In this document: positions 4,117 to 5,445 of the stretch, in pieces
Position numbering within the stretch: the first letter of the stretch is position 1
Layout: each line of letters starts with the position of its first letter
Assembly (NCBI RefSeq): GCF_044324875.1
Contig: NZ_CP172185.1
Length of the DNA: 64,000 bases
Reading direction: 5' to 3' (one strand)
Source of the DNA: Escherichia coli
Lineage (GTDB): Bacteria > Pseudomonadota > Gammaproteobacteria > Enterobacterales > Enterobacteriaceae
Program-made: the position numbers and the translations under genes
The notes under the pieces: model-generated
The model's database searches: none
Told to the model about the DNA's origin: nothing
Seen by the model: only the letters and a program-made list of their open reading frames with translations

Positions 4117-5445
4117 ATGGCGGCTGTAAAAATTTCAGGCGTGCTGAGGGACGGAACCGGAAAACCGGTACCGGGATGCATTATTGAGCTGAAAGCGAAG
4201 AGAACCAGCGAGACAGTCATCGCCACGACAGTGGCTTATGGCATGCCGGAAGAGACGGGGAGTTACAGTATGGATGTGGAGCCAGGAATATACAGGGTGA
4301 CACTCAATACAGAAGGTTACCGTCCTTCGTATGTGGGAGATATCGTGGTCAGGGAGGATTCTTCACCGGGAACACTGAATAAATTTCTGATGGAGATGGA
4401 AGATGCTCCTTATTATCCGAAGGCGTTGTCAGAGCTGGAGGCTGTGGTGCAGTCCATACTGCACAGAGCAGAGTCCGCGGCATCTGAGGCGGAGGAAGCC
4501 CGGAAACGAGCTGCATCTGCCCGGGGACCACGAGGAGAGAAAGGGGATACCGGCGCTCGTGGTGAAAGAGGCATTACCGGGCCACAGGGGCCAAAAGGTG
4601 AAACAGGAGCACGTGGCCCGGCAGGACCACAGGGACCAAAAGGTGAAACAGGTGAACGCGGTCCGGCAGGTCCACAGGGACCAAAGGGCGATACAGGTGA
4701 ACGCGGCCCGGCAGGTCCACAGGGACCAAAAGGTGAAACAGGTGCACGTGGTCCGGAAGGTCCACAGGGAGCAAAAGGTGAAACAGGTGAACGCGGCCCG
4801 GCAGGTCCACAGGGAGCAAAGGGCGAAACAGGTGCACGTGGTCCGGAAGGCCCTCAGGGTCTGAAGGGAGAAAAGGGTGAGCGAGGAGAAAAAGGCCCTA
4901 AGGGGGATAAAGGAGATCCGGGAGGTCCACAGGGACCAAAAGGTGAAACAGGTGAACGTGGCCCGGCAGGTCCACAGGGACCAAAAGGTGAAACAGGTGA
5001 ACGTGGCCCGGCAGGTCCACAGGGACCAAAGGGCGATACAGGTGAACGCGGTCCGGCAGGTCCACAGGGGCCAAGAGGGTATACAGGTGAACGCGGGCCG
5101 ACAGGTCTACAGGGGCCAAGAGGGTATACAGGTGAACGCGGGCCGGCAGGTCCACAGGGGCCAAGAGGAGAAGCGGGGCGGCCAGCGAGCGTCGGAAGTG
5201 TTTATTCCGTGGGGTCTTATGTTCTGGGGATCATAGAACGAAATCATGAGATAACAAATACCCGTCAAATACCCGGGTATCGTATCAGACAGGCCGTTAT
5301 TGTGTCGTCGTCATCGGATAAACTTACAGATATCCGCTTTTTATTTGGCAATCCTATGCTTGGTACATGGATGTTATGCACAACTAACATGGCGGTGAAT
5401 AATATCAGTGGGACGATTTGGGGCCTGTTTCAGAGAATACTGTGA
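4117..5445 (+). CDS. Side tail fibre protein (Stf-like) with collagen-like Gly-X-Y repeats
   Basis: N-terminus [18 protein letters not shown]... matches the conserved lambda Stf N-terminal domain; long ([15 protein letters not shown])n tract. Confidence 0.8.
4530..5170. repeat. Collagen-like triplet repeat tract (45-bp periodicity) within the tail fibre gene
   Basis: Reiterated ggtccacagggaccaaaaggtgaaacaggtgaacg-type units; G-X-Y in translation. Confidence 0.85.

Follow-up and report, generated by a model that had tools for sequence, protein, structure and literature searches.

The window analysed here is a 64,000-nucleotide stretch of Escherichia coli DNA (NCBI RefSeq assembly GCF_044324875.1, contig NZ_CP172185.1) in which an stf-like side tail fibre gene carries a long tract of 45-bp repeats. 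This tract is a genuine coding minisatellite, and its product is the collagen-like shaft of a side tail fibre that is EPclC-like; EPclA-D are the E. coli prophage collagen-like proteins (EPclPs) described previously (Ghosh et al. 2012, PMC3368898). Taking the evidence together, we consider it very likely that the tract encodes the shaft of a side tail fibre, trimeric in form, that belongs to a lambdoid E. coli prophage of P-Eib-like type beside btsS, and that its alleles have been shaped by repeat recombination. An earlier inspection of the letters alone (the sequence-only reading) had already described a collagen-like repeat in a side tail fibre; the division into two arrays with a conserved one-residue break, the repeat-mediated loss of an internal domain and the publication of the protein class (PMC3368898) were not part of it.

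Tandem Repeats Finder (TRF) reports two arrays of period 45, along with 90- and 135-bp super-periods of the same arrays. Together with the parse of the encoded open reading frame (ORF, lengths in amino acids, aa), they define the following parts:

4117..5445, plus strand: stf-like side tail fibre gene, 442 aa, comprising a collar domain, a short, probably helical segment, a collagen-like shaft and a small C-terminal domain (ORF list, Pfam, PHROG)
4525..4920, plus strand: collagen-like part 1, 44 Gly-X-Y triplets, aa 137-268
4582-4859, plus strand: array 1, 45-bp tandem, 6.2 copies with 87% matches and a score of 395 in TRF
4579-4848, plus strand: array 1 as bounded in the unit table, six 45-nt units
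4849..4923, plus strand: unique 75-nt collagenous spacer between the arrays, encoding 25 residues, its last codon (4921-4923) being an extra Gly
4918-5172, plus strand: array 2, 45-bp tandem, 5.7 copies with 90% matches and a score of 342 in TRF
4924..5184, plus strand: collagen-like part 2, 29 triplets, aa 270-356, made of five 45-nt units and a 36-nt terminal segment

Glycine occupies every third position from residue 137 to residue 356 of the ORF (window 4525..5184), within about 15 bases of the 4530-5170 interval assigned by the sequence-only reading. In the register of the repeat, this stretch parses as 44 triplets, one extra Gly and 29 triplets, or 73 triplets altogether, a count for which the earlier figure of more than 40 was true but low. 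The DNA is laid out as a 54-nt lead-in, six units (4579-4848), the 75-nt spacer, five units (4924-5148) and the 36-nt terminal segment. Mean pairwise DNA identity among the 11 full units is 87%, with one identical pair, and both the 45-bp periodicity and the near-identical 15-codon units proposed earlier, with their consensus, hold on this analysis. Head-to-tail units of 10-100 bp with high identity are the mark of a minisatellite, and here the period is 45 with 87-90% matches. When up to three mismatches are allowed, the 45-nt consensus finds 5 matches in the window, all of them within the tract, and 0 in 100 shuffles. The tract is also richer in G+C (62%) than the window (50%).

The columns that vary among units number 3, 4 and 8 at codon positions 1, 2 and 3, respectively, and the coding frame of the tract is fixed because the Pfam domains lie in frame and the unit variation falls mostly at third codon positions. 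Stop codons are scarce across the tract, with only one or two in each of four non-coding frames out of five, and the ORF list accordingly contains four spurious entries, two on each strand, as had been predicted of the minisatellite from the letters alone:

4403..4864, plus strand: spurious out-of-frame ORF, 153 aa
4877..5236, plus strand: spurious out-of-frame ORF, 119 aa
4574..4837, minus strand: spurious antisense ORF, 87 aa
4898..5164, minus strand: spurious antisense ORF, 88 aa

The extra Gly (codon 4921-4923) breaks the triplet register as GDP-G-GPQ, which is a G-X-P-G-G-P-X-G break. This single-Gly break is kept in all 14 chromosomal alleles (that of the window and 13 orthologues), and the same break is frequent in EPclPs with two collagen domains (PMC3368898).

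The gene surrounding the tract is recognisable at its 5’ end as a tail fibre gene. Pfam assigns residues 3-133 to the prophage tail fibre N-terminal family (PF08400, E=2.7e-40) and the shaft to the collagen repeat (PF01391, E=1.4e-37), and the whole 442-aa protein matches phrog_366, ‘tail fiber protein’, at E=2.6e-103. The features needed to place the protein are these:

4123..4398, plus strand: N-terminal collar domain, aa 3-94, matching PDB 9E7M chain Ta (Ur-lambda Stf) at E=4.4e-29
4414..4524, plus strand: Ala/Glu-rich segment, aa ~100-136, at the end of the PF08400 match
5185..5442, plus strand: C-terminal non-collagen domain, 86 aa, 27% identical to the C-terminus of P-EibA ORF-401
6..2855, plus strand: tip attachment protein J, truncated by the window start (Pfam Ig_J, Phage-tail_3 and Phage_Tail_Tip; RefSeq annotation of relatives)
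5461..6036, plus strand: DUF4376 protein, 191 aa (Pfam PF14301; PHROG 1141, ‘tail fiber protein’), 57% identical to P-EibA ORF-191A

In the Ur-lambda virion, 12 copies of the Stf collar domain, arranged as four trimers, encircle the junction between tail tube and tip (PMC12617516), and the match to 9E7M chain Ta places the 442-aa protein in the same collar family. The name ‘side tail fibre’ given by the sequence-only reading is correct because of this collar match, the PF08400 domain, the tail fibre PHROGs, the J gene upstream and the DUF4376 gene downstream. The prophage end adjoins btsS in the E. coli chromosome, and this setting, with J 5’ and the DUF4376 gene 3’ of the fibre gene, is the kind of prophage tail module in which the EPclPs of E. 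coli and Shigella are encoded. The DUF4376 protein is probably the assembly chaperone of the fibre, as it occupies the position that tfa has in lambda. A GGAG ribosome-binding site lies 7 nt 5’ of the stf ATG. A terminator-like hairpin at 4080-4105 (CCCGCAATTTTGCGGG followed by ATTATTTTTT) separates stf from the gene of a Cor-like lipoprotein, at a distance of 12 nt from the ATG; stf is presumably expressed only when late transcription is anti-terminated.

The collagen begins only three residues past the end of the PF08400 match. The Ala/Glu-rich segment that precedes it, for which a weak Alanine_zipper match is seen at 106-136 in one orthologue (L001), is probably a short trimeric α-helical neck ahead of the collagen; the last ~30 residues of PfN, the EPclP name for the PF08400 domain, were predicted to be helical (Ghosh et al. 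2012, PMC3368898). Beyond residue 133, nothing other than collagen was matched in PDB or Pfam. The 86-aa C-terminal domain had no match in Pfam, PHROGs or PDB; against 5.8 billion proteins it recovered only 4 partial Escherichia proteins, and against 1.84 billion representatives it recovered one full-length cluster, one 62-aa Escherichia fragment and 4 spurious matches to unrelated repeat proteins. On these searches the domain appears to be restricted to Escherichia. It is probably the distal end of the fibre, serving as a trimerisation module, a receptor-binding module, or both.

A very different role, that of a bacterial surface or virulence factor mimicking host collagen in the manner of streptococcal Scl1/Scl2 or Bacillus BclA, might be suggested by the presence of BclA among the PDB collagen matches and of a moron-type gene for an immunoglobulin-binding, YadA-like protein in the same prophage neighbourhood. 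We regard it as extremely unlikely: the BclA match is confined to the Gly-X-Y repeat, the N-terminus is a tail-binding Stf collar domain, the gene order J, stf, DUF4376 gene is that of a tail fibre module, and no signal peptide or cell-wall anchor was recognisable on reading the sequence, for which no signal-peptide predictor was run.

The tail fibre assignment is strengthened by comparison with the EPclPs, in which PfN, sometimes with a PCoil, precedes collagen and a further domain at the C-terminus (Ghosh et al. 2012, PMC3368898). As judged from its sequence, the window protein is a member of this group, closest to the EPclC type of P-EibA. PfN, PF01391 collagen, Pro-rich X positions, the pairing of acidic X with basic Y, and little Pro in Y are common to both. 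In the window tract, X is Pro in 48% of triplets and D/E in 36%, whereas Y is K/R in 45%, T in 19%, Q in 18%, A in 12% and Pro in 3%; the published EPclP composition has the same X values (Pro 48%, D/E 36%), with K/R at 31% and Pro at 7% in Y (PMC3368898). The five commonest triplets are also the same, being GPQ, GER, GPK, GPA and GET in the tract and GPK, GPQ, GPA, GER and GET in EPclPs (PMC3368898). One departure is the triplet GYT, which occurs in the window protein although Tyr in X is absent from EPclP collagen according to Ghosh et al. (PMC3368898).

The EPclC prototype, ORF-401 of P-EibA (GenBank AF151091), is 49% identical overall to the window protein. Like it, ORF-401 has a PfN domain, no long PCoil, collagen with a G-X-P-G-G-P-X-G break, and a C-terminus that is not PfC (PF06820) and that aligns end to end with the window domain (27% identity, E=0.001), both proteins ending in LFQRI(L/V); Pfam detected neither PF06820 nor a PCoil in the window protein, which fits the EPclC type, where PCoil is often absent. 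The P-EibA gene order is J, lom, orf-401, orf-191A and eibA, and the window has the same order of J, stf, 191-aa DUF4376 and eib. The two differ in that Gly-X-Y is irregular in ORF-401 and a regular 15-residue tandem repeat in the window protein, and in that ORF-401 has two collagen domains, the first bearing the break, split by a non-collagen domain where the window allele has one fused collagen domain. One-collagen-domain EPclC variants have also been listed (PMC3368898), and 9 of 13 close relatives of the window gene do have a collagen-domain-collagen layout, with an internal domain unrelated to the helical one of ORF-401.

Other known fibres are more distant. EPclA and EPclB of E. coli O157:H7 prophages (ECs2717, Z1483) resemble the window protein in PfN, preferred triplets, variable collagen length and tail fibre position, but carry a PCoil coiled coil of 109-116 aa and, for trimerisation, the PfC domain (PF06820), and their DNA is too divergent from the window gene for a megablast match. 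Lambda (Ur-lambda) Stf/Tfa shares the homologous collar domain, the position 3’ of J and an accessory gene in the tfa position. For the Stf shaft, however, the model has coiled-coil domains, proximal and distal, of which the latter is gp37-like, and Stf ends in an OmpC-binding domain (PMC12617516), whereas in the window the shaft is collagen-like, the distal domain is unrelated and the downstream gene is DUF4376; a gp37-like coiled-coil shaft with an OmpC-binding C-terminal domain is not what the window protein has. BclA of Bacillus anthracis and the collagen-like minor tail proteins of PHROG 1806 likewise have a Gly-X-Y shaft from tandem DNA repeats, but differ in flanking domains, organism and repeat unit. 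In BclA, the number of repeats differs from strain to strain and determines how long the filament is. In a phage collection, megablast with the gene and tblastn with the C-terminal domain alone both gave nothing, and tblastn with the full protein recovered only PhiR12-type phages and P-EibA, at 40-49% identity. The Stf of Escherichia phage PhiR12_2 is 48% identical to the window protein in a full-length blastp alignment and 26% identical in the C-terminal domain (E=1e-6). In this PhiR12/PhiR5 group of isolated phages, the collagen-like Stf has 520 aa and is annotated only as ‘hypothetical protein’ (PhiR12_2, PV340550.1, 2495-4057).

Comparison across related prophages revealed that the tract varies extensively in repeat number. 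By megablast, the gene was matched in 23 of 5,426 complete E. coli genomes, with no alignment spanning the gene and all of them breaking in the repeat; its distal part, searched separately, was matched in 21 genomes. A first impression that the C-terminal 21% of the gene was without a relative was accordingly discarded, as the alignments had merely broken at the variable repeat. We assembled 13 orthologous loci from 11 genomes, which with the window give 14 chromosomal alleles, and added a metagenomic protein (P0005) from the representative search. The flanks of the tract (408 nt at the N-terminal end and 261 nt at the C-terminal end) match those of the window allele with 97-100% identity in all 13 loci and P0005. 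Between them lie 73-118 triplets in the chromosomal alleles, with 10-20 units of 15 codons that are cleanly delimited; P0005 has ~44 triplets (counted from the sequence) and has lost the spacer with the break. Repeat-number variation, which the sequence-only reading had named as likely, is therefore present, and the identical counts in all relatives that would have spoken against it were not observed. Copy number differs between otherwise near-identical alleles, which is what characterises a variable-number tandem repeat. It is also in keeping with EPclPs, whose collagen lengths differ between copies by multiples of three residues (PMC3368898).

Protein lengths among the alleles are 442, 457, 529, 543, 577, 586, 601, 604 and 616 aa, the 543-aa relative (L006) having its N-terminus truncated by IS66. 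Array 1 contains 4, 6 or 8 units, array 2 contains 3, 6 or 9, and a fused array 2/3 contains 4, 5 or 12; the unit maps further show a 2-unit duplication (27-2-27-2) and a 4-unit near-duplication. By arithmetic on these maps, three kinds of change account for every difference in length: steps of whole 45-bp units, a 306-bp block, and a 9-bp variation in the terminal segment. Despite many indels the reading frame is kept in 14 of 14 alleles. Of the 14 tracts, that of the window allele is the shortest, and it carries its own unit variants (units 3, 8 and 9).

Annotation of the long repeat can go astray. The RefSeq/PGAP entry for one relative (L002, NZ_CP029741.1, 2040-3773) is an incomplete pseudogene ‘missing C-terminus’; its ORF is in fact intact, encoding 577 aa and 118 triplets between N- and C-terminal domains that are both normal, and the fault apparently stems from the long repeat. 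Two genomes each hold two stf copies in different prophages (L004/L013 in NZ_CP128970.1 and L003/L010 in NZ_CP100500.1). The copies are identical in TUM1886, and of equal length with distinct distal repeat units in LH50-c; duplicate copies within a genome could act as recombination partners for the repeat.

Could the short window allele be an artefact of assembly, with a short-read assembler having collapsed or skipped part of the repeat, including the internal domain described below? Tandem 45-bp units at 87-100% identity are difficult to assemble, the tract is the shortest among the chromosomal alleles, and the exact window protein was not found in a collection of ~15 billion proteins. Nevertheless, this seems very unlikely to us, given that each array (~270 bp) is short enough for ordinary reads to span, that the longest identity at the deletion junction is 24 nt, below usual assembly k-mers, that alleles without the domain (L002, L004, L013), as well as many other unit counts, come from complete closed genomes, and that the frame is kept in the window sequence, which has its own unit variants.

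Alleles also differ in the presence or absence of an ~87-aa globular, non-collagen segment (…DLNRLGRVTDQGDYYQPSDSG…WSEWKELGA, also given as …GDYYQPSDSGATRENNYPIQRAGYLQV…GPWSEWKELGA; block of ~306 nt), which lies inside the tract in 9 of 13 relatives and in P0005, between array 2 and a short third array. This internal domain had no match in Pfam or PDB. The Pf2 repeat of EPclB was considered as a candidate for it and rejected, as the segment is not that repeat. The window, L002 and L004/L013 are without the domain. In alignment, the distal half of the window gene equals that of one domain-bearing relative (L012) minus 351 nt, corresponding to the internal domain and one unit. Two 24-nt direct repeats, ACGCGGTCCGGCAGGTCCACAGGG, at gene positions 840 and 1191, flank this stretch in L012, and in-silico deletion of one ACGCGGTCCGGCAGGTCCACAGGG copy together with the interval yields a sequence of exactly the window length with 16 mismatches in 597. 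The inferred crossover point is:

5046..5069, plus strand: 24-nt repeat ACGCGGTCCGGCAGGTCCACAGGG (alignment and reconstruction test)

This copy of ACGCGGTCCGGCAGGTCCACAGGG is a hybrid, with left-type sequence to its left and right-type sequence to its right. A 26-nt repeat with copies 396 nt apart was also tried as the junction and rejected, as it did not reproduce the window. The junction thus reads as the signature of recombination or slippage between direct repeats, and we infer that the event was a loss of the domain rather than a gain.

These data are consistent with a model in which three chains would dock on the virion tail through their N-terminal collar domains, join in the short helical neck (Ala/Glu-rich, aa ~100-136) and then wind into a collagen triple helix. 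With the standard rise of 0.286 nm per residue, a helix of ~220 residues would be ~63 nm long, and that of the longest allele ~100 nm. The single-Gly break would probably introduce a local kink or a shift of register. High Pro in X (48%) and the pairing of acidic X with basic Y may replace hydroxyproline, as shown experimentally for EPclA. At the distal end, the 86-aa domain would form a knob that may nucleate trimerisation, by analogy with PfC of EPclA, and may bind a receptor, as its position suggests, with the DUF4376 protein probably acting as its chaperone. At the DNA level, unequal recombination or slippage between ~87% identical 45-bp units could add or remove whole units in frame, and recombination between arrays could excise whatever lies between them; the window allele would be such a product, from which the internal domain has been lost. 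EPclA itself is a trimer with a collagen triple helix that melts at 42 °C and a dumbbell appearance, as determined by circular dichroism, analytical ultracentrifugation, size-exclusion chromatography with multi-angle laser light scattering, and electron microscopy (PMC3368898).

Several points weigh against this model. Triple helix and trimerisation are extrapolated by analogy from EPclA, whose C-terminal domain is a different one (PfC). An AlphaFold2 prediction of the 86-aa domain from an 8-sequence alignment had a mean predicted local distance difference test score (pLDDT) of 50 and a predicted template modelling score (pTM) of 0.36, too poor for a fold search. The internal domain could also be gained, through recombination with a domain-bearing allele, and collapse of the repeat in short-read assembly is possible for the window allele. 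Further, the window holds only the tail end of the prophage, which may be defective, its fibre never assembled, and two of the features 3’ of the fibre module bear signs of disruption:

6250-8693: complete IS66-family element, with tnpC at 6287..7825 and tnpB at 7875..8222, minus strand
9095-10375: eib-like gene (YadA-family, immunoglobulin-binding type; named from the annotation of relatives)

The IS66 element lies between the DUF4376 and eib-like genes, 213 bp 3’ of the former. The eib-like gene has an in-frame stop at 9926-9928 that divides it into ORFs of 277 aa and 144 aa in one frame, and it may be a nonsense pseudogene.

It could be argued from this that stf is a decaying remnant in a defective prophage, that the short, domain-less allele is non-functional and that the repeat changes reflect neutral erosion. 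Besides the IS66 element just 3’ of the DUF4376 gene and the in-frame stop in the adjacent eib-like gene, this view draws on the window allele being the shortest of 14 chromosomal tracts and devoid of the internal domain, and on the IS66 or IS256 insertions that flank several relatives, in one of which (L006) IS66 has cut the N-terminus of the protein. We think it rather unlikely, though less so than the other alternatives weighed here. The ORF is intact and in frame behind its GGAG ribosome-binding site, the coding parts at its two ends agree with those of other alleles at 97-100% identity, and domain-less alleles occur at three other loci, two being identical copies in one genome. That all 14 alleles are in frame also speaks against decay, albeit as weak evidence of selection, since 45-bp indels keep the frame automatically. 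In any case, a defective prophage bears on the present use of the gene and not on the identity of the tract as the collagen-like shaft of a side tail fibre.

Much of this was in print: Ghosh et al. (2012, PMC3368898) had already covered the protein class along with its composition, its conserved break and the variability of its collagen length. The present analysis contributes a map of the variation at the level of single units and one explicit case of repeat-mediated domain deletion, which is detail rather than a new concept. In practical terms, gene callers and assemblers mishandle the region, as exemplified by the four spurious ORFs and by an intact relative marked as a pseudogene in RefSeq, and for prophage annotation and typing the tract is best handled as a single collagen-like coding repeat. 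The locus is also a clean case of a fibre in which the shaft changes by whole units and an internal domain is shed via 24-nt repeats while the domains for attachment and at the distal end remain constant. Should adsorption depend on fibre length or on the internal domain, the locus would offer a simple natural system for relating shaft length to host recognition. More speculatively, the 45-bp repeat might be a recombination scaffold that retunes P-Eib-like side fibres, through a shaft of ~40-100 nm and in-frame gain or loss of a mid-shaft globular domain, to the depth of O-antigen or capsule on new hosts. We consider this proposal unlikely; if true, it would make the repeat a contingency locus for phage adsorption, beyond neutral slippage.

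The remaining features of the prophage end lie 5’ of the fibre gene:

2855..3115: small ORF with a weak PHROG match to an outer-membrane-protein family, E=2.8e-4
3115..3777: small ORF with a PHROG match to a ‘membrane associated protein’ moron
3799..4044: Cor-like lipoprotein ORF, 81 aa (MKIIVCTFLLFLVSGCAG…), matching phrog_1119, Cor superinfection exclusion, at E=8e-7

The Cor-like ORF is directly 5’ of stf, and the same position holds lom in other relatives. On the 3’ side, the IS66 element has the inverted repeats GTAAGCGTACAGC / GCTGTACGCTTAC at its ends and is flanked by an 8-bp target duplication, GTTTCATG, at 6242-6249 and 8694-8701; the same site is uninterrupted in one relative (L003, CP100500). 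The first part of the eib-like gene had no Pfam match at E<=1e-5, and a YadA-family eib-like gene is also found 3’ in most relatives. Elsewhere in the window, 23628-34853 (minus strand) holds three tandem paralogous ORFs of 1214-1265 aa with DUF4132, two of them with an N-terminal WGR domain; these belong to the chromosomal yeh region and have no relation to the prophage.

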